A stretch of DNA of 64,000 nt from Candidatus Brocadiia bacterium (GCA_050015075.1 JBEKCB010000006.1:15811-79810), one strand, 5' to 3'; shown: positions 1 through 25,074, counted from the stretch's first letter. The notes: generated by a model not told the origin, from the letters alone. Numbers and translations are program-made.

Positions 1-1089
1 GCCGGAGGGCAAGGGAATGGATGACCCTTTCCAGAAGGGTGAACTGAGCCATTCATCCAGGTGAATGTAGTGTCCGGTGTTCACGCAGAAAGTGTAAAGG
101 GAATCATCCCGCGCGCCTTCAGCCGCAGCAAAGACCTCGCCCGCGGGCGTTCCCACGCCCAACGCGGCATACCAGGCCCGCGTCACGGCAAGGTAATTCT
201 CGATCAGCTTGAGCGTAGCGCGCCCTTTCCGCGACGCAAAGCCGTCGGCGTTCCTGACCAGCATTCCCGCGCGGCACGTGAGCGATCCCCACACCCCGAA
301 CGCACTGGTCAGGTACTCGCCCTCTTTGACCACGTCGTTGCCGGGAGAAGCCATGCCGTTGGAAACGACTTTGCCGCAGGAAACCATGGGATGGCAGGAT
401 TCGGGAAGGCCGCCGCCGTCATAGATCCTGGCCAACTCGAAACAGCGCGCTCCGGGCTTCAGCGCGCGCAGAAGGTTCAGCACGGACGTCGAGGTCCGGA
501 TCGCCGCGTATTCAAAAAGCGCGATCTGCTCCGGTTCATTCTGAAGGCGCAGTCCGTCTTTCGGACTCATGAACATATCGTTGGCATTCGCGGGCCGCGC
601 GCCGCAGATGCCCGTGACGAGGTCAACAATGTACGCGGGCGCCTCGATCCGGTTCGCCATCAGGCTCTTCCACCCGGCAACGCCGCAGCGCATCCCGCTG
701 CGGAGTCCGGCTTTGCGCAGGACAGGCGCCAGGTCCCATGACTTGGAACGGTCCTGGCCCATGAGACTGAATTCCTGGCAAAGCGCGATATCGGCGAAGA
801 ACGGCAGCTTGGAGACGATATTGATGCATTCATTGCCGAGGCAGAGCGTGGCTTGCCCGTCGGCGGTGAGGATGAAGAGCGCCTCCTCGAAGCGCGGGTC
901 AAACCCGGTGCAGTAGGCCATGTTGGCGCTGTGCTCGCGGTCCGCGTAGACCAGCAGGCAGTCGTATTGCGCCGCCTGCATTCGCTCCCGGACTTTGGCC
1001 AGCCTGGAGCGGTACACGCCCGCAGGGATTTCCGGAATCGTCTCGGGGCCGCCGAAGTCGGGAATCGTCATCTGGGTCATGGTCATCAT
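1..1089 (-). CDS. M24 / creatinase-N-like (Xaa-Pro aminopeptidase family) protein. N-terminal ~363 aa are present; the C-terminus lies beyond the window start.
   Basis: Manual reverse translation from ATG ~1089 gives an open frame to position 1: MMTMTQMTIPDFGGPETIPEIPAGVYRSRLAKVRERMQAAQYDCLLVYADREHSANMAYCTGF... This is Creatinase_N-like, followed by a pita-bread-like segment. It is absent from the ORF track because it runs off the edge. It sits 34 nt downstream of the DegT gene in the same operon. Confidence 0.45.
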   Translation of the reverse strand, partial: MMTMTQMTIPDFGGPETIPEIPAGVYRSRLAKVRERMQAAQYDCLLVYADREHSANMAYCTGFDPRFEEALFILTADGQATLCLGNECINIVSKLPFFADIALCQEFSLMGQDRSKSWDLAPVLRKAGLRSGMRCGVAGWKSLMANRIEAPAYIVDLVTGICGARPANANDMFMSPKDGLRLQNEPEQIALFEYAAIRTSTSVLNLLRALKPGARCFELARIYDGGGLPESCHPMVSCGKVVSNGMASPGNDVVKEGEYLTSAFGVWGSLTCRAGMLVRNADGFASRKGRATLKLIENYLAVTRAWYAALGVGTPAGEVFAAAEGARDDSLYTFCVNTGHYIHLDEWLSSPFWKGSSIPLPSG

Positions 1090-1122
1090 CGAATGGGTCT
1101 CCCTAATTCCTTGTTCGTCCGA

Positions 1123-2478
1123 TTAGTGATGGCGGGCGAAGTGCCAGTCGCCGAGCGTGGGCGAGTCGCCCGGGTCGCCCTTCAGGAGTTCATTGTAGTT
1201 CTCCGCCGCTTTGCGGAAGGCCATGGCGTGCTCTTCGATGAGCTTGGGATAGAACTTCTTGAACGACGGAATGTAGTAGTTGCGGGCGTTCGCCGCCTCG
1301 CTCACCGGCAGGCTGCCCTTGCGCTGGCGCAGGTCGCGGTCGGAGAAAGCGATGCGCGTCGGCTTGCCGTCGCCGTAGACGTCGGCGGTGTTGAAAACGG
1401 GGTGCAGGTGCAGCGGCCGGTTCGAGCCGCCGGCGCAGACGCTGCCTTCGGCCCGGACGGCCTCGGCAAAGCGCGTGACCGACAGGCCGCCGAGTTCCTC
1501 GGGCACGTAGAGGCCGTGCGCGCAGTACCAGCCGCCCATGTTCGTCTTCGGGTCCTTCGGGTCGGTCCGATGCGCCCGCAGGCCGGGCACGCCCTCGAGC
1601 AGGTCCCAGAAATAGTTCAAGGCCTTTTGGATGTCGGCGCACCGCGCGTCGTAGTGCTTGAGCTGCACCCGCCCCACCGCCGAACTCAACTGGTGCATCC
1701 GGTATTTGTGGCCGCCCAGTGGAAGACCCACGAGTCCCTTGAGCGACGCGGTCGCGATATCGTCGGGCCTCTGGAAGCGCTCGTAATGCCCCCACGCGAT
1801 CGCGCGTTCGTAAATCCGCCGGTTGTCGGTCACCAGGATCCCGCCTTCGCCGATCGCGAAGGCCTTCTCGCTCATGAGCGACATTCCCGCCACGTCGCCG
1901 ATCGTGCCGAGTTTCTTCCCCTTGTATAGCCCGCCCTGGGCATGCGACACGTCCTCGATGACGAAGAGCTTGTGCTTGCGGGCGATTTTCATGATCGGGT
2001 CCATGTCCGTCGGATACCCGAGGTAGTGCACGACGAGGATGGCCTTCGTGCGCTTGCTGATCCGGCGTTCGATGTCGTCGGGGGCCAGGCAGAGAGTGGC
2101 GGGATCAATCTCGCCGAAGACCACCGTCGCGCCCACGTTGTAACACGGCATGGCCGACGCCCAGTAGGTGACGCTCTGGCAGATGACTTCATCGCCGCGG
2201 CCGATCCCGCAACCGAACATCGCCCCTTCGAGCGCGGCGGTGCCGGTGCTGTGCGCCAGCGCGTACCGGGTTCCCTGCCACTGGGCGAACTCGGTCTCGA
2301 AGGCCTTCGTCACGCCGAGCTGCGACATGGCGCCGCGGTTGAGGACTTCGAGGACGGCGCGGCGGTCCTCATTGGTGATGATCGGCCACCTGAAGAGGTC
2401 GCGCGGCTTGGACCGCACCGCTTTAGGCCCGCCGAAAAGCGCAAGCTGCGACTTTGCGGATTTTGATTTGCTGCTCAC
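1123..2478 (-). CDS. DegT/DnrJ/EryC1/StrS-family PLP-dependent sugar aminotransferase
   Basis: 451-aa ORF with typical family layout (…HSTGTAALEGAMFGCGIGRGDEV…VVHYLGYP…). Compact operon position. Confidence 0.75.
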   Translation of the reverse strand: MSSKSKSAKSQLALFGGPKAVRSKPRDLFRWPIITNEDRRAVLEVLNRGAMSQLGVTKAFETEFAQWQGTRYALAHSTGTAALEGAMFGCGIGRGDEVICQSVTYWASAMPCYNVGATVVFGEIDPATLCLAPDDIERRISKRTKAILVVHYLGYPTDMDPIMKIARKHKLFVIEDVSHAQGGLYKGKKLGTIGDVAGMSLMSEKAFAIGEGGILVTDNRRIYERAIAWGHYERFQRPDDIATASLKGLVGLPLGGHKYRMHQLSSAVGRVQLKHYDARCADIQKALNYFWDLLEGVPGLRAHRTDPKDPKTNMGGWYCAHGLYVPEELGGLSVTRFAEAVRAEGSVCAGGSNRPLHLHPVFNTADVYGDGKPTRIAFSDRDLRQRKGSLPVSEAANARNYYIPSFKKFYPKLIEEHAMAFRKAAENYNELLKGDPGDSPTLGDWHFARHH

Positions 2479-2510
2479 GAGTTTCTCCTGAACTGAGACT
2501 TTCCGGATGA

Positions 2511-4481
2511 CTACCGCTTGGCGATGCCCGAGACCTTGAACCTGACGACGCGCAACCCGCAGACCTTTCCGAAGTGCGCCACGTCGCTCTGAAGCCGTTG
2601 CATCGCCTGCCGGTTAAAAGGGGAACCATTCATATGGAGCGGGCGCGTGAGCGTCACCTCGGCCTGGGTCAGCGCCACCGCGAGCGCGATATCGCCCCAT
2701 TCGAGGAACCCGGGCACGTGCACGCCCAGCGAGAAGGGATTCTTTCCAACGGTGTACAGGTAGCTGCCCGGCATTCCGGTCAGGTTCAATCGCGCGAACC
2801 CTCCGTTCACCGCCGCGCAGAAAAGCGCCGCCAATGCGCCTTCGCCCGTGCCGGCCAGGCTCAGCGGGCCTTTGCTCCTCTTCCGCAGGAATGACGCCAT
2901 CAGTTCGATCCCGCGGGCGCGTTCGCCCATGAATGTCCTGCCCATCCACAGGTACGCCCGGGTCGTGTCGTGGTGAATCGCCGTATTGTGCTCCAGGTCG
3001 CCGAAGCTTCCTTCCGTGAAGAGCAGCACTCCCTGGCCGCGCGCCAGCGCCTGGTCCACCAGCGCCGGGTCCGGCGAGCCGGTTTTTCCTTCCACCTTGG
3101 GGATGATGGTGTAACCCGCCTTCGCATCCTTCGGGACGATGAGCAGAAGCGCGAAATGTTCCCCGCTCACGGTGGAGACCACCATCCGTTGCCAGGTGCG
3201 CCCCTCGATGCTCTCCGGCCCCAGGTCGCGCACGTCCCTGAGAATCAGCGCGTCGCCCATGTGCAGGATCCGGCGCAGCTCTTTGCGCTTGGCCGCCGGG
3301 CTCATGGACTTCTTCGCGCGCGCCTCGGCAATCAACTCCTCTCCGCGTTTGCGGCAGAAGACGGCAATGCTCGGAACGATCGGCGGACGCTTTCCTTTCC
3401 GGAAGCACATGAGCTGCTCCTGCGGCAGCGCACGGAAAAATTTCTCCGGTCGCGGCGAGCCGTCGCCGACGCCCTTGAGCCAGCGGTCGAACCAGCCGTA
3501 CATCGCCTCGCGGACCTCGGTCCAGTAACCGTGCGGGAGATTGAAGACCTGGTAGGTCAGTCGCTCATCCGCTCCCAGCGCCTGGTACACCGGCCGCGCC
3601 CCCACGAACGAGCGGAGCATCTCCGCCGGATAGAATGACGAGTTGGTATCCTTGAGCGCGTTGCAGATCTTCAGCGCCCGCGGCGCGATCAGCGCCAGGA
3701 TGCCGGCCATTTCGGTGAGCAATACCGCGCCCGGCAGCGTCTCGCAGATGCAGTTGGAGCCGGCGACGTAAGCCTCGAACGTTCCCACGCTCACCACCGG
3801 CACCGCCGCCGCGAGCCGCTCGTCCATCGCCGCGACCCACATCGTCTGGTTGCCCCCGCCGCTCGCGCCGGTGACGCCGATCCGGTCCGCGCGGACGCAC
3901 GGAAGCGATCGCAGGAGGCTGACCCCGCGCATGTTGTCCACGATCTGCATCCCCATCAACGTCTCGCCGATGTCGTAAACCGAAGTGCCCAGGTGAGCGC
4001 CGTGGTACTCGTAATGGCCGTGCGTCGTAGCGCGCTCGCCGGCGCCGAAGGCATCCACGCTCAGACAGACATACTCCTCGCGAGCAAGGTGGTGTGCGCG
4101 TCCCTGCACACGGTCCGCCAGGTGGCCTTCGCCGAAATGCCCGTGCACGCTGAGCACCGCCGGGAACGGCCCGGCGCCGTCGGGGACGTAGAGACAACTG
4201 GTGACGTAGAACCCCGGGCGACTCTGATAGATGACCTTGTCAATTCGATAGCCGTCCATCCGGATCGTCCCGAGTATCCTCATATCCAGGTCCAGCGTGT
4301 CATCCGGCGCAGTCCCGAGGAGTTCCCAGAGTCGCGCGCGCAGCGTCCGGCGCCAGGGCTCCCATTCGGCGCGGCTCGCCGGAAGGCGGCGCTCGCAGAA
4401 CATCCGCGTCGCCTCCAGGCTCATTTGAGTATGGGCGTGCGAGATAAAACCCTTGTCCCAGTCGGCAAGCGATCTTTCCAT
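2511..4481 (-). CDS. alpha/beta hydrolase, acetyl-xylan-esterase / dienelactone-hydrolase-like
   Basis: 656-aa ORF. Nucleophile elbow GVTGASGGGN (GxSxG) sits in the C-terminal half, with a long N-terminal domain typical of AXE1-like esterases in PVC bacteria. Confidence 0.5.
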   Translation of the reverse strand: MERSLADWDKGFISHAHTQMSLEATRMFCERRLPASRAEWEPWRRTLRARLWELLGTAPDDTLDLDMRILGTIRMDGYRIDKVIYQSRPGFYVTSCLYVPDGAGPFPAVLSVHGHFGEGHLADRVQGRAHHLAREEYVCLSVDAFGAGERATTHGHYEYHGAHLGTSVYDIGETLMGMQIVDNMRGVSLLRSLPCVRADRIGVTGASGGGNQTMWVAAMDERLAAAVPVVSVGTFEAYVAGSNCICETLPGAVLLTEMAGILALIAPRALKICNALKDTNSSFYPAEMLRSFVGARPVYQALGADERLTYQVFNLPHGYWTEVREAMYGWFDRWLKGVGDGSPRPEKFFRALPQEQLMCFRKGKRPPIVPSIAVFCRKRGEELIAEARAKKSMSPAAKRKELRRILHMGDALILRDVRDLGPESIEGRTWQRMVVSTVSGEHFALLLIVPKDAKAGYTIIPKVEGKTGSPDPALVDQALARGQGVLLFTEGSFGDLEHNTAIHHDTTRAYLWMGRTFMGERARGIELMASFLRKRSKGPLSLAGTGEGALAALFCAAVNGGFARLNLTGMPGSYLYTVGKNPFSLGVHVPGFLEWGDIALAVALTQAEVTLTRPLHMNGSPFNRQAMQRLQSDVAHFGKVCGLRVVRFKVSGIAKR

Positions 4482-4578
4482 GGACGGTATTCCTTGTGAT
4501 ATGCGTATTCGCGGGCGCGCCGCCGTGTCGGAGAGATCGTACTGACGCGACCTCTAAAAAGCAAGGTCAAGCGTTCAT

Positions 4579-6147
4579 TCAGACGCCCTGGGCGGCGGCG
4601 CCGTCCGAGCGCGCCGACTCGACCAGGCGCTGTTTCCGATTCCAGAGGCGCTCGCTGAGCGAGACGTGATAGACGTGCGGATTCACGAACCGCTTCACGC
4701 CCGGGTCGAGCCGGTCCACGTCCGCCTTTCGCCGCGCGCGCATCTCCTCGATCGTCGGCGAATCACCGACGCGCCGGCCTTCCTCCAGGACCTTCACCAG
4801 CAGCGGTTCGACCGTCTGGATTTCCTCGCGGGCCAGGACCCTGCGCTTGGAAGGTTCCGTCGGATGCTGCAGGATGACCTGCGCCATCTGTCGGGGATCC
4901 TCGTCGGGCAGGCCGAGCAAGTCGGCCGTAGCCAGCCCGCGGCGGTCATAGAGCCGCCAGACGCCCTTTTCGCCGGGGTTGAGAGTCTTCTCAGGCACCT
5001 CGGAGAGTTTGATCGCGGGCGCCCACTGCTTCCCGTCGTGCACCGCGGCGAGCTTGTAAACGCCGTCGAGCGCGGGCGCGCCTTCGGAGCTGATGAGCCG
5101 CGTGCCGACGCCGAACATCAGGCGGCGGATCAGCCGGCCCGGATCCATGCCCCAGCGAGGCGCTTCCTCCTCGATCTGCGTGAGGATCTGCCAGATGACA
5201 AGCTCGTCGAGCTGGTTCGAGAGAAGGATGCACGGATCGGGAAAGCCCGCGGCGTCGAGCATCTTAGCCGCCTGGATGCTCAGGTACGCCAGGTCGCCCG
5301 AGTCGAGGCGGATGCCCGCCGGCCGGTGTCCCTGCCGGCGCAGTTCCTCGAAGACCCGGATGGCGTTCGGTATGCCGCTGCCGAGCGTGTCCACCGTGTC
5401 CACGAGCAGCAGGCAGTCATCGGGATAGACTTCGGCGTAGGCGCGGAATGCGCCGAGTTCGCCCTCGCCGAGGGCCATGAAAGCCTGCACCATGCTGTGC
5501 GCGTGCGTGCCCTTGGCCGGGAAGCCGAGCGCGCGAGAGATGCCGACGTTCGAGCTGAAGTCCGCTCCGCCGATCAGCGCCGCCCGTGTGCCGGCGTTGG
5601 CGCCCCGCTCCTGCGCGCGGCGCATGCCGAACTCCACCAGCGGCTGCTCATGCGCGCTCTGCCGGATGCGCGCCGCCTTGGTCGCCACCAGCGTCTGGTA
5701 GTTGAGCTGGTTGAGCAGCGCGGTCTCGAGGATCTGCGCCATGGCCAGCGGGCCCTCGACCACGGTGATCGGTTCCTGCGGGTGAACCACGCGGCCCTCG
5801 GGGACCGCGGCCATGCTGATCCCATCGAAGCCGCCGTTCGAGGCCAGCCAGCCCAGGAAGTCGTCGCCGAAGAGCCGCCGGCCCGTCTGGCCCGCCTGGC
5901 CGCGGAGGTACTCGATATCCTCATTCCGGAACCGGGTCTCGCGCATCCAGTCCAGGAGCCATCCCAGGCCGGCATTGACGCAGTACCCCGCGCGATGCGA
6001 ACCGTAGTCGGGGTAGTGCCGGAAGAAGTGCTCGAACCTGGCGCGCTTCTCGTGCAGGCCCTTCCGGAAGTAGAGCTGCGCCATGGTCAGCTCGTACATG
6101 TCCGTGAAGAGGATGCCTTCGGCCATGCGCCGGTCAGCCGAGTTCAT
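4579..6147 (-). CDS. pncB: nicotinate phosphoribosyltransferase (NAPRTase family)
   Basis: N-terminus …[16 protein letters not shown]… is the NAPRTase signature. The start overlaps the stop of the upstream ORF by 4 nt. Confidence 0.8.
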
Positions 6148-8411
6148 GGCGCGGAGCCCTTCCGGCCAAGAACCTCTCCGGTCTGCACGAACACGGCGCC
6201 GGCCCGCGCCATCTCCTCTCGGGCGGCGGCGATGTCGCCGGGCTTGACTTCGATGCCGCGGATAGCGTCCTCGATTACAAAAACGTCGAAGCCCAGCTTT
6301 CGCGCGTCCAGCACAGTGGCTTTCACGCAGTACTCCGTCGCGAGGCCGCCGATCCAGAGCCGCCGGATTCCCCGGGCCTTCAGCGCCGCCGGCAACTCCG
6401 GCGCGTCAAAAGCCGAGTAGGCCTCTTTGGCCGGATCGGTCGCCTTGGAGACCACCAGGTCAATCGCCCGAGTATTAAGATCGGGATGAAAGTCGGCGCC
6501 CGGCGTGTTCTGCACACAGTGGTCCGGCCACGGCCCGCCGGCGCGTTTGAATGAGCAGTGATCGGCCGGATGCCAGTCGCGCGTGGCCACGCGGAACAGC
6601 TTCTTCACGCGCAGCCACTGGTTCAGCGGCGGCACAACCTCGTCGCCGCGCGGCACCGGCAGCGCTCCGCCGGGGCAGAAATCCCGCTGCACGTCCTCGA
6701 GGACCAGAGCATCGGTCGCCGTGTTGATCCGCGCAGTTCCGGCGGTCTGCCGAATATGTTCCGGCCGGCCGGTCGCGCCGGCGGCGGGGTTTTCCGACGC
6801 GCCCTGATGGTCCGGCACGCCGGACGCATGCAACCGTATGGCGGCGATCAAGTCCTCGGACGGTCCTCCTTTAGTCAGGTAGGCAACCGCGCCGGCGTCG
6901 CGCAGCGCCGTCGCCACGTCGTTGTCCGTGTGCATGGACAGCCCGATCACCTTGATGTTCGGGCTCGCGGCCAGAATTCGCTTCGTGGCTTCCACGCCGT
7001 TCATCCCAGCGCCGAGGTTGATGTCCATGATGATGACGTCGGGCTGAAGTTTCGCGGCCAGTTCGACGGCGACGGGGCCGTCGGCGGCCTGGCCAACGAC
7101 CTCGATATCCGGCTCAAACTGGATGATGCCCGCGAGTCCTTCGCGCATGATCTTGTGATCGTCAACAATGAGGACGTGGCGAACGGCTGTCTTATCGCGC
7201 ACGATGATCTTGCCGGCTTGCTCTTCCGTTCCAGCCGTCTCATCCCCAATCCGGGCGTGCGGTTGCGCGGCACCGACGGGGATCGTCAAGGTGATCGTGG
7301 TTCCTTTGCCCGGCGCGGTCGCGATGTACATCTCGCCGCCGATGTGGGCCAGCCTCTGCTCGATGCTGAACAGGCCGAAGCTGATCTCGTCGGCGCGGCG
7401 TTTCTTGAGCAGGTCGGGATCGAACCCCTTGCCCTGATCGCGGACGATCAGTTTGATGCGGTCGTCTTTCGTCCGCAGCAGCATCACCTGCGCTTCCAGG
7501 ACGCCGGAATGTTTGACGGCGTTCAGGAGCAGTTCGCGCACGCACTCGAAGAGGAGAAACCGCGTCGCTTCCGTGGCCGGCTCGGCCTTGTTGTCCGCGT
7601 GCAGATGGACTGCGAACTGATTCGTTTGCTGCGTGCGGGAGGCCAGCCAGTTCAGGGCGCCGATCAACCCCGCCGTGTGGAGCACGGGCGGGCTCAATTC
7701 GACCGCCAGCGAGCGGGACGCCTCCAGGGCTTCCTTGAGAATGCCGTCCAGACCCTTTGCCGCGGCTTGTCTCCGATCCGGATTGTTGTCGCGCTTCAGC
7801 CACTCCACCTGCATTCGTGCCGCGACCAGCAATTGCTGGATGTGGTCGTGCAGAATGGTGGACAAGCGCTTGCGCTCGCGTTGCTCCGCCTGGGTCAGTT
7901 CCGTCGCCAGCGCGCGGAGTTGGTCGGCCTGCTGTCGCACTTCTGCGGTTCGTTCAACCACACGCTGTTCGAGCGATTGATTCAACTCGCGCAACTTCTC
8001 CTCGATCTGTTTGCGTTCGATCGCGTAGCGTATGGCGCTGGCGACGGACCGGGCATCGGCGCTCCCCTTGATGAGGTAATCCTGCGCTCCCTGGCGGATC
8101 GCCTCGGCGCCGGTCGTCTCATCGTCGGCGCCGGTCATGATGACGATGGGCAGTCCGGGGAATTCGGTCTGAACGCGCGTGAAAGTGGCAAGGCCCGTGC
8201 TGTCCGGTAACCCCAGGTCCAGCAATACCACGTCGAACTTCTGTTCGCGCAGTTTCGCCATCGCCGTGTCGAGCCGTTCCGCCACCATCACCTCATAGCG
8301 CGCACCGCGACCCTGGCGCAGGCCGTGCTGGATAAGATGGGCGTCCGAGGGGCTATCTTCGACGAGCAGTACTTTGGCCGTCATAGTGTCCAATTCAGCG
8401 GCATCCTTCAA
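6144..8411 (-). CDS. hybrid two-component protein: REC – HisKA_3/HATPase_c – REC (NarL-type) – C-terminal nicotinamidase (PncA/isochorismatase-like) domain
   Basis: 755-aa continuous ORF. REC1 ([13 protein letters not shown]…[11 protein letters not shown]). H-box LHDHIQQLL. HATPase (LLNAVKHSG…DQGKGFD…GLFSIEQR). REC2 ([14 protein letters not shown]…IIMDINLG). A ~40-aa low-complexity linker follows, then [26 protein letters not shown]…, which is a classic PncA start. No in-frame ATG or Shine-Dalgarno sequence precedes the PncA domain. Confidence 0.6.
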
Positions 8412-8854
8412 CGTCTGGCGGGCAGCGCCACGACCGTGAGCCAGAAACTCTCGATGGATTTCACGATTTCCAGAAAGCGCTCGAAGTTAACCGGTTTGGT
8501 GACATAGCAGTTGGCGTGAAGCTTGTAGGAACGAATGATGTCCTCTTCAGCCTTGGAGGTCGTCAGGACGACCACCGGAATCATTTTGAGGTCCGGGTCG
8601 TCCTTCAGCTCTGCGAGGACTTCGCGCCCGTCTTTACGCGGGAGGTTCAGGTCGAGCAGGATCAGGTCCGGCTGCTCCGCCTGCGAATAGGCGCCCTGGC
8701 GCCGCAGGAACTCCATGGCCTGGACGCCGTCCTGCACGTGGAAGACCTTGTTGGCCATCTTGGCCGTTTTCAACGCGGTCAGAGTCAGCTCGGCGTCGGT
8801 GGGGCTGTCCTCGACCAGCAGAATCTGAATCGGTCGCACGGTTGTCGGCGTCAT
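8408..8854 (-). CDS. single-domain response regulator (CheY-like receiver)
   Basis: 148 aa: [13 protein letters not shown]…[14 protein letters not shown]…[12 protein letters not shown]. It overlaps both of its neighbours by 4 nt. Confidence 0.8.
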
Positions 8855-11784
8855 TCGTCGCTCCTCTTGTCAAAAATGGTGAAGAAGAAAGTCGTTCCCT
8901 CTCCGGGCTGCGACTCAAACCAGATTCTACCAGAATGCCGTTCAACAATCTTCTTGCACACGGCAAGGCCGATCCCCGTGCCGGGATACTCAAGGCGCGA
9001 ATGGAGTCGCTGAAAGATCAGAAAAATCCGGTCATGATACTTCGGCTCGATGCCGATCCCGTTGTCGCGGACGCTGAATACCCATGCGTCTTTCTCCCGC
9101 CTGGCCCCGATGTGGATGTCCGGCGCGCGTGGACCGTGGAACTTGATGGCGTTGCCGACGAGGTTCTGCAGCAATTGAACCATTTGGGACGGGTCGGCCG
9201 CGATCGTCGGCAGCGGATCGCTGCGAATGACCGCGCGGCTCGCCTCGATGGCGGCGCTCAGGTTGCCCACGGCGTCGTCCAGCGCCTGCTTCATGTCCAC
9301 AGGCGTGCGGGCTCCGCCCCGGGAGCCTACGCGCGAGTAGGTCAGCAGGTCGTTGATCAGCGCCTGCATCCGTTCGGCCCCCTCGACGACATGGCCGATG
9401 TACTTCTGGCCGTCGGCATCCAGCCTGTCCTTAAGCTGCTGCTTGAGAAGGGACGCGAAGCCACCCACGGCCCTGAGCGGCTCCTGGAGGTCATGGGAGG
9501 CGACGTAGGCAAACTGCTCAAGGTCCTTGTTGGAGCGCGACAACTCGGCCGCGGTCTTCTCCAGTTCCGAGGTCCGCTGCTTGACCAGTTCCTCCAGTTG
9601 AAGGCGGTATCGGGCCAACTCCTGTTCCATCTTGTTCCGCTCTGTGACATCGCGGGCGGCGGCGAAAACGCCTTGCACTTCGCCGGCCTCATTCCGGTAA
9701 ATCGTGGCGTTGTACAGGACATCGGCGGTGCGGCCGGCACTGTGACGGACCGTCAGAGGGTAGTCGCGCACAAAACCGTCCGATAGCACCTTCCGATACC
9801 CCGCGCCGGCCCTTTCGGGATCGGTGAAGTAGCTGGAGAAATCGGTGCCGATCAGACGCTGGCGCGGAATGCCCGTGGCTTCCTCCGTCGCCTTGTTCAC
9901 GTCGGTGATCTTTCCGTCAGGGCTGATGGTGACCAGCGGGTCGAGGCTGGCTTCGAGCAGGCTGCGGGCGTAGAGCGAGGCGACGCGCAGTTGGGCCTCC
10001 ATCCGGTTGTGTTCAGTCACGTCGCGGGCGGCGGCGAACACGCCCTGCACCGCGCCCGCTTCGTTGCGATAAACCGTGGCGTTATACAGCACGTCGGTGG
10101 TGCGGCCGGAGGCGTGGCGGACGGTCAGCGGATAATCGCGCACCGTGCCGTCGCGCAGCACTTGCTGGTAACCGGCGTTGGCCTTCGATGGCTCGGTGAA
10201 GTAGTCGGAGAAGTGGGTGCCGACGAGTTGCGCGCGTGGCACACCCGTCGCCGACTCCGTCGCCGCGTTGACGTCGGTGACGTTTCCATCGGGGCTGATG
10301 GTGACCAGCGGGTCAAGGCTGGCTTCGAGCAGGCTGCGGGCGTAAAGGGCTGTCGCGCGCAACTCCTCCGTGCGCTCAACCACACGCTTTTCGAGCGTCA
10401 GGTTCATCTCGCGCAACGCCTCCTCGGCGGACTTTTGCCGGGTGATGTCGGTGCTGACTTCCAGGATGTCCAGCGGCTTGCCGCGTTCATCGCGGCGCAG
10501 TGCCCAGAGGAGCGCCACAGGAATCCGGGTCCCGTCCTTGGTGCGGCGAGTCACTTCGCCTTCCCAGCGGCCGTTCAACTCCAGATCGGCGTGAATCTGC
10601 TCCAGCGGCCGGTCGAAATGCGTCTGCAGCAATTCTGAAGCAGGCTTGCCCTCGGTCTCCTCGGCATCATAGCCATAAAGCCTGCGGTTACCATCGCTCC
10701 AGCGGATGATGCGGTCATCCAGACTCCGGGCCAACAGGTTGCCGAGGTTCACCAGGGCCAGTTCCTTTTCCTGCGCGGCGCCGACGACTTCGGCTACGCG
10801 GGCGCGGCGCAAGCGCTCCGCCAGGAGGCTCAGGAAAATGCCTGCGCCGGCAAAGATGCCCAACGATACAGCGTCGGCCGCATGGGCGATACTGAACGAC
10901 CCTGTCGGCGCAACGAACCAATAGTCGGCTGCCAGCACGGTCAGGACCGTGGCCACGACTCCTGGTCCGCCGCCGGCGACCGTCGCCGCCAGGAGGACCG
11001 CCGGATAGAAGGTGATGAACATGGGCACAGGCCCGACATGCTGCTCCAACCAGCTTTTCAGCCAGGCGGCCAGGGCAATGACCGCCGCCGCGAAGGCGTA
11101 CCGGACGGCGGTTCCGGGCCATTTCCTGCCGGCGCCGCCTAATCGCAGATTACGATCTGCCAGCCGCACCGTGCGTATGAGGATGACCCCCGCAACCCCC
11201 AGAATGGCCAGCGACAGCAGCACGCCCAAGCCCAGCGTCAGCATGCTTTGCCGGGCGACCTTGCCGGCATCGCGACTCCGCGCGTCCAGCAAACGGTTCT
11301 CACGCTGCTCCATCACCGCGACGAGGTCCCGGATTTCGTCCGTGATGCGCTCGCCTTTCCCGCTGCTAATGATCGGCAAGGCCGCCTCCAAGCCGCCTTC
11401 CCTGCGATGCTGGATGAAATCCTTAAGAATATCGAGTTTTTCGCTGCAAAGCTTCTGAAGTTGCTCAAGGTCTCTCTGTTGATCGGGGTTGTCCCGGGTC
11501 AAGTATTTGACCGAGGCGACGTCGTTCTGAAACTCCGCGATGGCCGAGTCATACGGCGCCAGGAATTGCGCATCGCCGGTCAGAACAAAGCCTCGCGCGC
11601 CGGTTTCGGCCATCATGACCACCGATTGAACGCGCTCCAGGTTCTGCAGCACCTCGTGAGTATGGTCCACCCAGTCCTTGCTCTCGGTCAACCGCTGGAT
11701 AACCAGGTAGGATCGGACGCCCACGAAGCTGATGATCAGCAGCCCCAGGATTAACGCGACGGTGATTTTCGCTCCAAGTTTCAT
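8851..11784 (-). CDS. sensor histidine kinase: CHASE3 – TM – DUF4118-like – 3x PAS – HisKA – HATPase_c
   Basis: 977 aa with an N-terminal CHASE3 segment (…[33 protein letters not shown]…). Two nearly identical tandem PAS modules (…[26 protein letters not shown]…[36 protein letters not shown]…). H-box [10 protein letters not shown]-terminal ATPase with GTGIGLAV. Confidence 0.8.
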
Positions 11785-12344
11785 TTAGAGTTCTCCAAGG
11801 CCATCGAACTCCTCTCTAACGTCCAGACCTGCGCTGCGACAAACGACGAGGGGTTGTACGGTCGCTGATTTCGCGCATGGTCATGCGGTCCTCGTTCTTT
11901 CCGGACGGGCGCCACAGTTTCCCGCCGGAAGATTGCGTGATACCGCGACGCTTTCCGCCAGCACGCGGAAGCTTTTTTCACTGCCTGGCGCGGACGCGCA
12001 AGATCCGGTTTTTACGTTCGCTGCCTTCGCACGCGCGCCATTCCTGGACTTGTTCGTTTGCATGGCTGGGTTCTCCTTTCAGGCGCTTCACATTGCTGAA
12101 TGTGCCGATGCCACGAGCTTTCCCCTGCCCGGCGACGCCGACGTCAGCGCGATTATCCCACAATTGCGTTCGTTGATCCAACATGGAAGGCGGCCTCATC
12201 GGCGTCATGCCGGCGCCTCGCAGCGGGGTTTGTCCTATGCGAAGAGCGGGGAGACACCCGATTGTTTGCCGCCGTCGCTCTGCTAGAATGCCGGACGTGG
12301 GGCGAGAACTGGACGTCGGGGAATGCGGGGGCAAACCCGGACGG

Positions 12345-12393
12345 CCGGATAAAAGCAAGACGGCTCGACGTGAAGACGTCGAGCCGTCTTGCC
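12345..12393 (-). terminator. rho-independent terminator of ssrA
   Basis: Perfect 16-bp-stem hairpin CAAGACGGCTCGACGT-GAAG-ACGTCGAGCCGTCTTG. On the minus strand it is followed by TTGCTTTTATCC, ~50 nt downstream of the tmRNA CCA end. Confidence 0.55.
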
Positions 12394-12444
12394 TTCCAGG
12401 ATAAGGAAAAGGGCACTCGCGTCAGCAAGCGCCCTTCTCGCATT

Positions 12445-12805
12445 GGTGGAGGCGGGGGGAATCGAACCCCCGTGCCGTGGCACTTCAACAGAAGCTTCTA
12501 CGTGTGTGTTCCATCATTTGTCTTTTCTAGACCCTCAGGACTCCGATGGACAGGATTCCAGTTGGACCCGAGCCCGGACTTATCATTTCCCCACAACCCC
12601 GCCAGGCAGAAGGTTGCAAGTAGCCTGCTCTTGTCGCCCATTCCGGCCTCGCAGGCAAGACCGGATGAGCGTCGCAGCTAATTAGGCTGCGAGAGAGTAG
12701 TGCGTTTCAGCACTTAGTGTTTTTGCCGGGTGTTTAACGAGGCCTCCCGACAACCTCGACACGCCACTCCTGCATCATATTGCCCGGTCGAAGCCTTTCG
12801 CCCCC
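12445..12805 (-). ncRNA. ssrA: tmRNA (ssrA), one-piece, ~361 nt
   Basis: The minus strand reads 5'-GGGGGCGAAAGGCUUCGACCGGG…GGCCUCGUUAAACACCCGGCAAAAACACUAAGU GCU GAA ACG CAC UAC UCU CUC GCA GCC UAA…GGGGGUUCGAUUCCCCCCGCCUCCACCA-3'. The acceptor stem GGGGGCG/CGCCUCC, the T-arm, the CCA end, and a collinear match to the E. coli ssrA 5' third including the tag ORF ending …LAA-UAA are all present. Proposed tag: AETHYSLAA. Confidence 0.8.
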
Positions 12806-12936: not shown

Positions 12937-13272
12937 TCACTCGAGGAGCACGTTCAGCTTCTGGAGAACGTCCTGCACGGCGGCTTCGGGCAACTCACAG
13001 CAGAGGGTTGCTCTTCTGGCGTGCCAGTCGAGACTCTTGACCTGATCGGAAAGCACGACTCCCGTGAGCTTGAGGCCGGTCGGTATTTGGACTTCAAACG
13101 GATAGCCCTTGGCGTGACTGGTCACAGGGCAAAACAAAGCCAGGCCGACCTTTCGGTTGTACGCCTCGGGCGACAGAACCAATGCGGGACGACGCCCTAC
13201 CTGCTCGTGACCCGCTTGAGGATCGAATGCCAGCCAGACTATGTCGCCCCGTTTCGGACAATAGGCGGCCAT
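12937..13272 (-). CDS. mazF: MazF/PemK-family endoribonuclease toxin
   Basis: 111 aa: …KRGDIVWLAFDPQAGHEQVGRRPALVLSPEAYNRKVGLALFCPVTS… matches the PemK/MazF fold signature. It is coupled 1 nt to the upstream antitoxin. Confidence 0.75.
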   Translation of the reverse strand: MAAYCPKRGDIVWLAFDPQAGHEQVGRRPALVLSPEAYNRKVGLALFCPVTSHAKGYPFEVQIPTGLKLTGVVLSDQVKSLDWHARRATLCCELPEAAVQDVLQKLNVLLE

Positions 13273-13526
13273 TACAACGTCTCCCGGCCCACAGGCATGC
13301 CCGCATCAATTTCTCGGTGCAGATTCTTCTTCGTCACATTCTTGAGCAATTCATCAAGCCGATAACGCCCGCGTCGAGTCCGGGCGACCACGATCTTTCC
13401 GTCTCGAACCGAGATGTCCACCGCGGAACCGGAGGTCAGCCGGGCATCCCTCGCGTACGAGCGGGGAATCCGCACCGCCAGACTATTACCCCATTTCTGA
13501 ACTTTCGCAACCATGTCTGTCCTCAA
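13272..13526 (-). CDS. mazE: MazE/AbrB-family antitoxin (SpoVT/AbrB swapped-hairpin)
   Basis: 84 aa: MVAKVQKWGNSLAVRIPRSYARDARL…VDISVRDGKIVV… is a classic AbrB/MazE N-terminus. It lies immediately upstream of mazF. Confidence 0.7.
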   Translation of the reverse strand: MRTDMVAKVQKWGNSLAVRIPRSYARDARLTSGSAVDISVRDGKIVVARTRRGRYRLDELLKNVTKKNLHREIDAGMPVGRETL

Positions 13527-24637: not shown

Positions 24638-24654
24638 CCGACGAGTTGTTGCAA

Positions 24655-24845
24655 CGCTCACAGGCGCCCGCGAGGGCGTGAAGGGAAGACGGTGAAATTC
24701 CGTCGCGGTCCCGCCGCTGTGATCGGGGACGAAAGCCGCATCGCGCGCAGGAAACTGCGCGCGCTTGGCCACTGTTCGGGGCGATCCCCGGACGGGAAGG
24801 CGCGGCAAGTAGGATGATCCGAGAGCCAGAAGACCTGCCTGTGCG
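24655..24845 (+). promoter_or_regulatory. cobalamin (AdoCbl) riboswitch
   Basis: AAGGGAAGACGGUGAAAUUCCGUCGCGGUCCCGCCGCUGUGAUCGGGGACGAAAGCC…GCCACUGUUCGGGGCGAUCCCCGGACGGGAAGGCG…GAGCCAGAAGACCUGCC matches the Cbl-riboswitch core (GGUGAAAUUCC, the B12 box GCCACUG, GGGAAGGC). It is 5' of a cob/btu operon. A candidate expression-platform hairpin GCCCGCUCGCAGAGCGGGAC lies at ~24868. Confidence 0.8.
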
Positions 24846-25074
24846 CGCTTCGCTTCATGTCGCATGGCCCGCTCGCAGAGCGGGACATGCTAAGGCTCCG
24901 AGGCTGGGCTGATGAAGATGCGGCTGGGCGGCCACACCGATTGCTCCCCTGCGCCTTCGAGGCAAGGGGCATATTGTTGTTCCAACCCGCGCGCTCCATC
25001 CCTCGACCTCCGCCTCATGAAGTAACCCCGTCCGCGGCCTCCGGAAGAGAGTCCGCCATGGAAAGGAGAGGGAC

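Follow-up and report, generated by a model that had tools for sequence, protein, structure and literature searches.

Can a two-component system act directly on NAD salvage? The question is raised by one gene in a 64,000-nt stretch of DNA from a Candidatus Brocadiia bacterium (GCA_050015075.1 JBEKCB010000006.1:15811-79810; hereafter, the window), in which an open reading frame (ORF) for a hybrid histidine kinase runs without a stop into a nicotinamidase, PncA, and ends on the start of pncB. An earlier reading made from the sequence alone (the sequence-only reading) had taken this gene for a genuine fusion and had proposed that nicotinamide-to-NAD salvage is an output, or an input, of a phosphorelay. 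With moderate confidence we favor a different combination: the fusion is genuine but recent, and PncA is a tethered, near-autonomous passenger whose expression is tied to the signaling operon and whose attachment persists because it has lost its own start rather than because phosphorylation controls it.

A hybrid histidine kinase that ends in a nicotinamidase

The 755-amino-acid (aa) ORF and the order receiver (REC), histidine kinase, receiver, PncA were recovered by ORF calling and Pfam as that reading had given them; the strand is minus. The parts of the gene, and pncB behind it, are as follows (window coordinates; dN/dS, ratio of nonsynonymous to synonymous substitution rates; pLDDT, predicted local distance difference test).

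6144..8411, minus strand: fusion ORF, 755 aa, REC1-HisKA_3-HATPase-REC2-linker-PncA (ORF call, Pfam, NCBIfam)
8022..8375, minus strand: REC1, aa 13-130, with the acidic pair E18/D19, phospho-acceptor D65, T93 and K115 (Pfam, residue check)
7275..7877, minus strand: kinase core, HisKA_3 (aa 179-244) plus HATPase_c (aa 287-379) (Pfam, residue check)
6834..7175, minus strand: REC2, NarL-type receiver, aa 413-526 (Pfam, NCBIfam, residue check, AlphaFold)
6732..6818, minus strand: linker, aa 532-560, of chimeric origin (alignments, dN/dS, pLDDT)
6147..6731, minus strand: PncA nicotinamidase module, aa 561-755 (structure-database alignment, residue check, dN/dS, pLDDT)
4579..6147, minus strand: pncB, nicotinate phosphoribosyltransferase (NAPRTase), 522 aa (NCBIfam NF006695, 608 bits, cutoff 469)

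The ORF starts with a TTG that overlaps the upstream stop codon as TTGA, and public gene calls use a 746-aa form starting from the ATG at codon 10. Pfam assigned two Response_reg domains (about aa 13-130 and 413-526), HisKA_3 (PF07730, aa 179-244, 34.2 bits, cutoff 24), HATPase_c (PF02518, aa 287-379, 49.5 bits) and Isochorismatase (PF00857, aa 568-741, 98.7 bits, cutoff 27). The H-box histidine, His188, lies within LHDHIQQ, and the N box (NAVKH), G1 (DQGKG) and G2 (GKG) of the ATPase are all there. Both receivers keep the acceptor Asp, the Thr/Ser and the Lys (D65/T93/K115 in REC1, D463/S492/K514 in REC2), and REC2 is complete with D417/D418. With its H box, HATPase boxes and attached receivers, the protein is a hybrid histidine kinase of the HisKA_3 (NarX/DesK-like) type. 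A NarL/UvrY-type model matched REC2 with 122 bits (cutoff 280), over the receiver part only (model positions 3-121), and neither Pfam nor NCBIfam found a LuxR/GerE-type helix-turn-helix (HTH) after REC2; PncA comes next.

The top NCBIfam match of the C-terminal module was the nicotinamidase/pyrazinamidase model PRK11609 (NF008623; 162.4 bits, cutoff 174), and its nearest solved relative is PncA of P. horikoshii (1ILW/1IM5; 206 bits, E = 5.5e-60). The alignment to nicotinamidase noticed in the sequence-only reading held, but the homology begins seven residues earlier, at R561 (RINTATD). The catalytic triad, which that reading had left to be compared with a characterized PncA, is complete: D573, K656 and C695 align with the triad of 1ILW, which we take to be D10/K94/C133 in the numbering of 1IM5. 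The metal ligands D612, H614 and H631 (plus H618) are also complete and align with the Zn ligands of 1ILW, presumably D52/H54/H71. An Asp-His-His metal site sets nicotinamidases apart from other isochorismatase-like enzymes. Free PncAs of relatives are 83-93% identical to the fused module, which is, we infer, a catalytically competent nicotinamidase. No second pncA was found within the 64-kb window, nor was a second one of more than 60% identity in any GTDB representative, including the metagenome-assembled genome (MAG) L012 described below.

The start of pncB overlaps the stop of the fusion by 4 nt (ATGA), as had been claimed, and the same 4-nt overlap of pncA and pncB was present in all standalone pncA-pncB operons examined; judged from these operons, it is ancestral. 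In the arrangement that we propose, the only form of PncA would be the C-terminal part of a hybrid kinase of ~82 kDa, attached by a disordered tether of ~30 residues, with two PncA copies per kinase (DHp) dimer, and pncB would stay translationally coupled to the fusion stop. The amounts of PncA and PncB would be set by transcription and translation of the signaling operon, and PncA would work autonomously on its tether as an active passenger enzyme.

The same open, in-frame junction was found in at least six assemblies from ENA, JGI and NCBI (the window, L174, L001, L012, L092 and L178), which differ by many substitutions and by no frame-breaking indel. A protein search for relatives of the fusion, covering 5.8 billion proteins, returned the near-identical P0001 (P0366; MGD1000085.1 at NCBI) and the 82% identical ortholog P0002 (P0372; MGO8705199.1), both with the Isochorismatase domain. 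L174 is 99.95% identical to the window at the nucleotide level, and the fusion proteins of L001 and L012 are 82% identical to that of the window at the amino acid level. The synteny of kinase, REC, fusion and pncB is kept on L001, L174 and L012; the latter, a GTDB-representative MAG, has an intact pncB (519 aa) and the same esterase downstream. In L001 (12244-13793), pncB is broken into two ORFs (341 and 99 aa); since the fusion proteins of L001 and L012 are 99.1% identical, the split is probably an indel error of a long-read assembly.

An additional fusion type, L092, came from a junction-spanning scan of JGI metagenomes and recurs on contigs of 18 kb and 21.6 kb, the latter being L178. Here the protein has 810 aa and the order PAS-HisKA_3-HATPase-REC-linker-PncA (L178 21-4633; L092 2-2964). 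Its gene comes right after a partner-switching set, made up of two STAS proteins, an RsbW-like kinase and a SpoIIE/PP2C phosphatase, and is followed by pncB, the esterase and DegT; its homology to the window breaks at the coiled coil before DHp (window ~8004). That L092 might be an assembly chimera was considered and rejected, as the same 810-aa architecture stands on 18- to 21-kb contigs with full context. The sequence-only reading had asked whether orthologs keep the fusion or carry a separate pncA, and the answer is both: the gene is fused in L001, L012, L174, L092 and L178 and standalone in L175, L176 and L177.

Public annotation is misleading for these proteins, since one protein stands under three different names at NCBI and JGI. 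MGD1000085.1 and MGO8705199.1 are each called "isochorismatase family protein," and the JGI names are "DNA-binding NarL/FixJ family response regulator," which is inaccurate because there is no HTH and PncA follows REC2, or "PAS domain S-box-containing protein." With the PncA module alone as the query, P0001 and P0002 were not among the matches, and the library of 50%-identity representatives shows no full-length fusion representative. The fusions are presumably clustered under an unfused kinase, and surveys of domain architecture that are based on representatives can hide such proteins.

Origin and age of the junction

The single REC protein and the CHASE3-3xPAS kinase that the sequence-only reading had placed upstream in the same array were both found there. 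They are listed together with the position of the rearrangement junction.

8408..8854, minus strand: single-domain REC protein, 148 aa (Pfam Response_reg, 75 bits)
8851..11784, minus strand: sensor histidine kinase, 977 aa, CHASE3-DUF4118 membrane region-3xPAS-HisKA-HATPase_c (ORF call, Pfam)
6740..6760, minus strand: rearrangement junction; homology to the standalone pncA locus of L175 begins at 6748 (BLAST)

The CHASE3/PAS kinase gene heads the array and ends in a 4-nt overlap with the gene that follows; the single-REC gene overlaps both neighbors by 4 nt and is kept in L001, L012 and L002. A scan of 4300-12500 for promoter and terminator consensus sequences gave counts at or under the shuffled expectation.

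On the donor side, the nearest unfused relative is P0003 (80% identity; contigs L002-L006), which has the same three-gene cassette and ends after LHAPGAP. The TAG of L002 is in frame with a downstream NarL-type receiver, REC3, that is broken by a frameshift. In the more distant relatives P0006, P0010, P0242, P0293 and P0351, REC2, linker and REC3 form one polypeptide and the linkers align with that of the window; therefore, what follows REC2 is a long-standing coding linker between domains and not a read-through spacer. A model of stop codon loss, with TAG in L002 facing GAA/GAG in the fusions and a spacer being read through, was rejected because the TAG is a derived nonsense codon in a coding linker. 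The REC3 pseudogene occupies L002 11597-12032 and is also present in L003-L006, with the in-frame TAG and a frameshift that splits REC3 into two ORFs; 18 nt that the fusion genes and P0006 possess are deleted from the region, and the 532-aa and 70-aa gene calls are the same in five contigs from different samples. Since REC3 is decaying in this sister lineage, its position appears to be dispensable.

On the acceptor side, L175, L176 and L177 carry a standalone pncA of 202-204 aa at the same locus, with its own Shine-Dalgarno (SD)-like motif and ATG/GTG, in the gene order β-helix protein, MazE, MazF, DUF6081, pncA, pncB, esterase, DegT. Compared by BLAST, L175 becomes homologous to each of the window, L178 and L012 at one and the same point (L175 8011-8016, window 6748), and this one junction is common to all three fusion types (window, L012 and L178). 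Upstream of it, L175 matches L012 through DUF6081. Relative to L175, L012 carries 4857 nt in place of 72 nt and the window carries 5589 nt in place of 917 nt. The linker itself has two parts, its 5' part being a homolog of the coding stretch that joins REC2 to REC3 in related kinases and its final ~6 codons (TAGTAR) being common to the N terminus of the same-locus standalone PncA. It had been described as Pro/Ala/Gly-rich and is more exactly Ala/Gly/Thr/Pro-rich. The ~10 nt upstream of the junction are kinase linker-like (8/10 matches to L002 versus 3/10 to L175), and the 20 nt before ATCAAC are nearest to L175 (16/20 versus 14/20 to L002); as the two parents are alike here, microhomology may have guided the join. 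On its left, the cassette begins ~140 nt ahead of the CHASE3 kinase gene (to 11917); these ~140 nt are homologous to the kinase leader of L002, and the homologies to L002 and to L012 both end there.

We propose that a cassette of ~5 kb (the CHASE3/PAS kinase, the single REC and REC1-HisKA_3-HATPase-REC2) was cut inside the REC2-REC3 linker and fused, in frame, with a pncA-pncB operon that was already there, at codon ~4 of pncA. The join would have removed the pncA leader, the SD sequence, the ATG and the first codons. A single inversion, with pncAB divergent from the cassette, had been prompted by the orientation of DegT and the esterase in L002 and was set aside. Neither a reciprocal REC3 product nor a remnant of the pncA leader was found in the window, which disfavors an inversion as none lies upstream of the kinase, and the tmRNA/MazEF/DUF6081 flank beside the free pncA of L175 is explained more simply by an insertion. 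The DegT-esterase block is divergent from the cassette in L002 and co-directional with it, downstream of pncB, in the window (1-4517), where the esterase-kinase spacer of L002 is split between 4479-4567 and 11779-11917.

How old is the fusion? A phylogeny of PncA only was unresolved on 186-190 columns, and pncB was used in its place. In the pncB tree, the window, L012, L178 and L175 form one clade with 100% bootstrap support and nucleotide distances of 0.057-0.087, distinct from the other standalone pncAB operons (L007, L008, L172 and L173). The standalone state of L175 is quite probably the ancestral one, as a simple deletion would not create its unique leader (68 nt) and start codon; whichever state came first, fused and free pncA coexist among very close relatives. 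By pncB, the same-locus clade is set apart (0.06-0.09 versus 0.11-0.16 to other operons), and pncA distances are nearly flat (0.10-0.15) over this clade, L007 and L008. The contrast may point to recombination within the pncAB operon or to different rates of change in its two genes.

The kinase part has a more uneven history. The window and L012 are 91-96% identical at the nucleotide level over most of the region, dropping to 77-80% in the kinase core (7158-8057) and to 72-77% in the CHASE3 region (10758-11900). The "82% ortholog" is thus a close relative with mosaic segments, and the pattern points to gene conversion between the numerous PAS/HisKA_3 kinase paralogs. An indel of ~300 nt at 10458-10757 matches the difference in kinase length (977 aa in the window, 870 aa in L012). 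The sensor end of L178 is wholly different, and on these comparisons the kinases of this family exchange segments freely while the junction stays fixed. The fusion itself is genuine but recent, confined to one small clade of uncultured Candidatus Brocadiia, a class of Planctomycetota.

Among the flanking features, a tmRNA gene (Rfam RF00023, 167 bits, full length) lies at 12444-12805 on the minus strand, directly upstream of the kinase cassette, and L175 5801-7093 is homologous by BLAST to window 13657-12338, spanning the tmRNA region. A MazF/PemK toxin (111 aa) and a MazE antitoxin (84 aa) at 12937-13526 (minus strand) are kept beside the locus in L175/L176. A cobalamin riboswitch (RF00174, 95 bits) is at 24645-24856 (plus strand).

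Passenger enzyme or phosphorelay output

As part of the fusion, PncA might be a phospho-regulated enzyme: the phosphorylation of REC2 or the state of the kinase would switch PncA, and Preiss-Handler NAD salvage would be an output of the CHASE3/PAS phosphorelay. We consider this unlikely, although several features favor it. REC2 is directly N-terminal to the enzyme with its receiver residues all there, fusions of REC domains with common metabolic enzymes form a recognized class (PMC5847659), the junction has outlived swaps of the sensor domain and the kinase core, and PncA has no start of its own. Selection and predicted structure were examined. The PncA core had dN/dS values of 0.14-0.25 between fused copies, 0.12-0.24 between fused and free copies and 0.16-0.26 between free copies. 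For the linker, the values were 0.94, 1.33 and 3.38 in three fusion pairs (29 codons, aa 532-560) and 1.2 between the window and L001 (34 codons, aa 532-565), and its length is constant and stop-free across the fusions. Substitution patterns thus show a PncA under ordinary purifying selection, unchanged after fusion, and a linker that evolves neutrally. AlphaFold2, run with a 34-row alignment, gave pLDDT values of >90 for REC2, >94 for PncA and <50 for aa 533-558, with a predicted TM score (pTM) of 0.60; the model is one of two autonomous domains on a flexible, predicted disordered tether.

A linker with a dN/dS of about 1 or more and predicted disorder, and a fused PncA under the same constraint as free PncA, speak against phospho-regulation, as do the free pncA at the same locus in close relatives and the decay in the sister lineage of REC3, the domain that PncA replaced. 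Moreover, an exhaustive HMMER scan of 1.84 billion representatives, with REC2, linker and PncA as the query, gave no other, independent REC-PncA protein in its 150 best matches, a scan that distant fusions under ~156 bits would escape. The link between phosphorelay and NAD salvage drawn in the sequence-only reading is accordingly not borne out, given this equal constraint and neutral linker, the shallow clade with its free same-locus relatives, and a rearrangement that put PncA in place of a dispensable third receiver. Direct phospho-control of PncA, for example by CheB-like occlusion, is possible at a low probability. Unlikely, too, is a gate set by REC2 phosphorylation or the conformation of the kinase dimer, through which the phosphorelay or, in the PAS variant, the partner-switching module would tune NAD salvage.

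A second alternative is that most PncA is made separately by internal initiation, so that the fusion would have little effect at the protein level. The candidate start lies inside REC2.

6849..6872, minus strand: SD-like AAAGGAGGA (6872..6864, codons K514-G516) and in-frame TTG (6851..6849, L521) inside REC2 (motif and codon survey)

Between REC2 and PncA only the reading frame of the fusion is open, and it contains neither a stop nor an ATG there, the latter as the sequence-only reading had stated, and the position of the ATG of free PncA is GCC in the window fusion. That reading had also seen no SD sequence ahead of PncA. The leader and start of pncA are indeed gone, but the SD-like AAAGGAGGA precedes TTG521. 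In four fusion sequences, we surveyed all ATG, GTG, TTG, CTG and ATH codons between helix 5 of REC2 and the catalytic Asp and found no canonical start common to all four. Initiation at TTG521, or at an ATT, ATC or CTG of the linker, would be helped by the SD-like motif and by ATC562 and CTG569, which are conserved in all fusion lineages. However, the 12-nt spacing between the motif and TTG521 is long, and this candidate is specific to the window: TTG521 is CTG in L012, L001 and L092. GTG532 of the window is GCG in L092, which has no ATG, GTG or TTG in the surveyed stretch except the Leu527 codon, also present in an unfused relative. As the ancestral SD sequence and ATG of pncA are deleted as well, we regard separate synthesis as improbable.

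A free enzyme could also arise after translation, by cellular proteases cutting the disordered linker. The segment of ~26 residues with pLDDT <50 between two well-folded domains would suit such a release, but no cleavage motif was identified in the linker, and the ancestral REC2-REC3 proteins share a similar linker with no sign of processing; this route is still less probable. Very improbable is a PncA module that has become an inactive remnant or a nicotinamide-binding input domain: the NCBIfam equivalog score slightly under its cutoff is not specific, and against decay stand the complete triad and metal ligands, the dN/dS of 0.14-0.25, equal to that of free PncA, a retained and translationally coupled pncB, and the failure to detect another pncA copy. 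Finally, an artefact in which a sequencing frameshift, a lost stop or a chimeric assembly joins two genes is effectively refuted by the recurrence of one in-frame junction in six assemblies that differ in sample, assembler and archive, with the alternative frames closed around it, even though the split pncB of L001 shows that indel errors occur; the genuine fusion of the sequence-only reading stands.

We thus return to a tethered passenger, which several points weigh against. The carriers are uncultured. Exchanges reached the sensor (REC1 versus PAS), the kinase core and the genes upstream but spared the HK-REC2-PncA junction, perhaps because the fusion itself is under selection. Control by occlusion, as in CheB, is compatible with a flexible linker. 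Because monophyly of the fusions inside the same-locus clade received only 9-26% bootstrap support, the standalone state of L175 could be a reversion rather than the ancestor. AAAGGAGGA with TTG521 could yield a free PncA of ~25 kDa, and the NF008623 score falls slightly short of the equivalog cutoff. The passenger reading accounts for the retained junction in another way: since pncA has lost its own start, the need for PncA alone explains why the fusion is retained. Without initiation signals of its own, pncA would be abolished by a stop in the linker, and the fusion would persist for that reason.

Comparison with known systems

The locus combines two familiar arrangements. Standalone pncA-pncB operons of Preiss-Handler NAD salvage, among them the same-locus copy of L175/L176/L177, have the same triad, metal site, 4-nt overlap and downstream esterase-DegT genes, whereas pncA of the window lacks the leader, the SD sequence, the ATG and the first ~4 codons and is read through from the hybrid kinase. 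HisKA_3 hybrids of the HK-REC-REC type (P0006, P0010 and P0293, and the unfused P0003/L002) share the kinase core and REC2 with up to 80% identity, the CHASE3-kinase/REC/REC-HK-REC cassette and a homologous linker distal to REC2. In the window, an enzyme stands in place of the terminal REC3, which in L002 is a pseudogene (TAG plus frameshift).

PncA is also the C-terminal partner in natural NAPRTase-PncA (P0285, P0344 and P0362) and quinolinate phosphoribosyltransferase (QRPTase)-PncA (P0345) fusions, so the enzyme tolerates an N-terminal partner; there the partners are metabolic neighbors, and here the partner is a signaling protein. The long PncA-containing HMMER matches that we scanned with Pfam were NAPRTase-PncA, QRPTase-PncA and one protein with Isochorismatase only. 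P0351, P0242 and P0293 were rejected as REC-PncA proteins, as Pfam showed REC-REC architectures. The tblastn matches L029, L045 and L053 seemingly reached REC2; of these, L029 was checked and proved to be an ordinary PncA of 198 aa. Full-text literature searches gave no description of a fusion of a receiver or kinase with a nicotinamidase or isochorismatase, in agreement with the sequence-only reading, whose author had not seen the arrangement described.

What would the fusion mean? If the receiver controls the enzyme, environmental sensing would be linked directly to NAD salvage flux, which is undescribed for two-component systems; with a gated PncA, a two-component system would for the first time have an output that acts on NAD metabolism after translation, caught early beside its unfused ancestor. 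If there is no regulation, the locus still shows cleanly how a multidomain protein comes into being in nature: the acceptor without the fusion (L175), a relative of the donor that is likewise unfused (L002) and three fusion products (window, L012 and L178) are all extant, the breakpoint is readable to about 10 nt, and the loss of the enzyme's own start locks the fusion in.

The attachment of REC domains to standard metabolic enzymes is a recurrent theme in the census of Galperin (PMC5847659). In response regulators with enzymatic output (CheB methylesterase, PleD/WspR GGDEF, RpfG HD-GYP and PP2C), the REC domain is directly N-terminal to the catalytic domain, as in the fusion described here. 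Compared with CheB-like REC-enzyme proteins, however, we saw neither a conserved linker or interface nor, among the best 150 representatives of the HMMER scan, recurrence across lineages; the fusion belongs to one clade with nucleotide distances of ≤0.09. It further differs in that its enzyme is a nicotinamidase and stands at the end of a hybrid kinase rather than of a free regulator. A nicotinamidase as the tethered module of a hybrid kinase is new within the known class of receiver-enzyme fusions.

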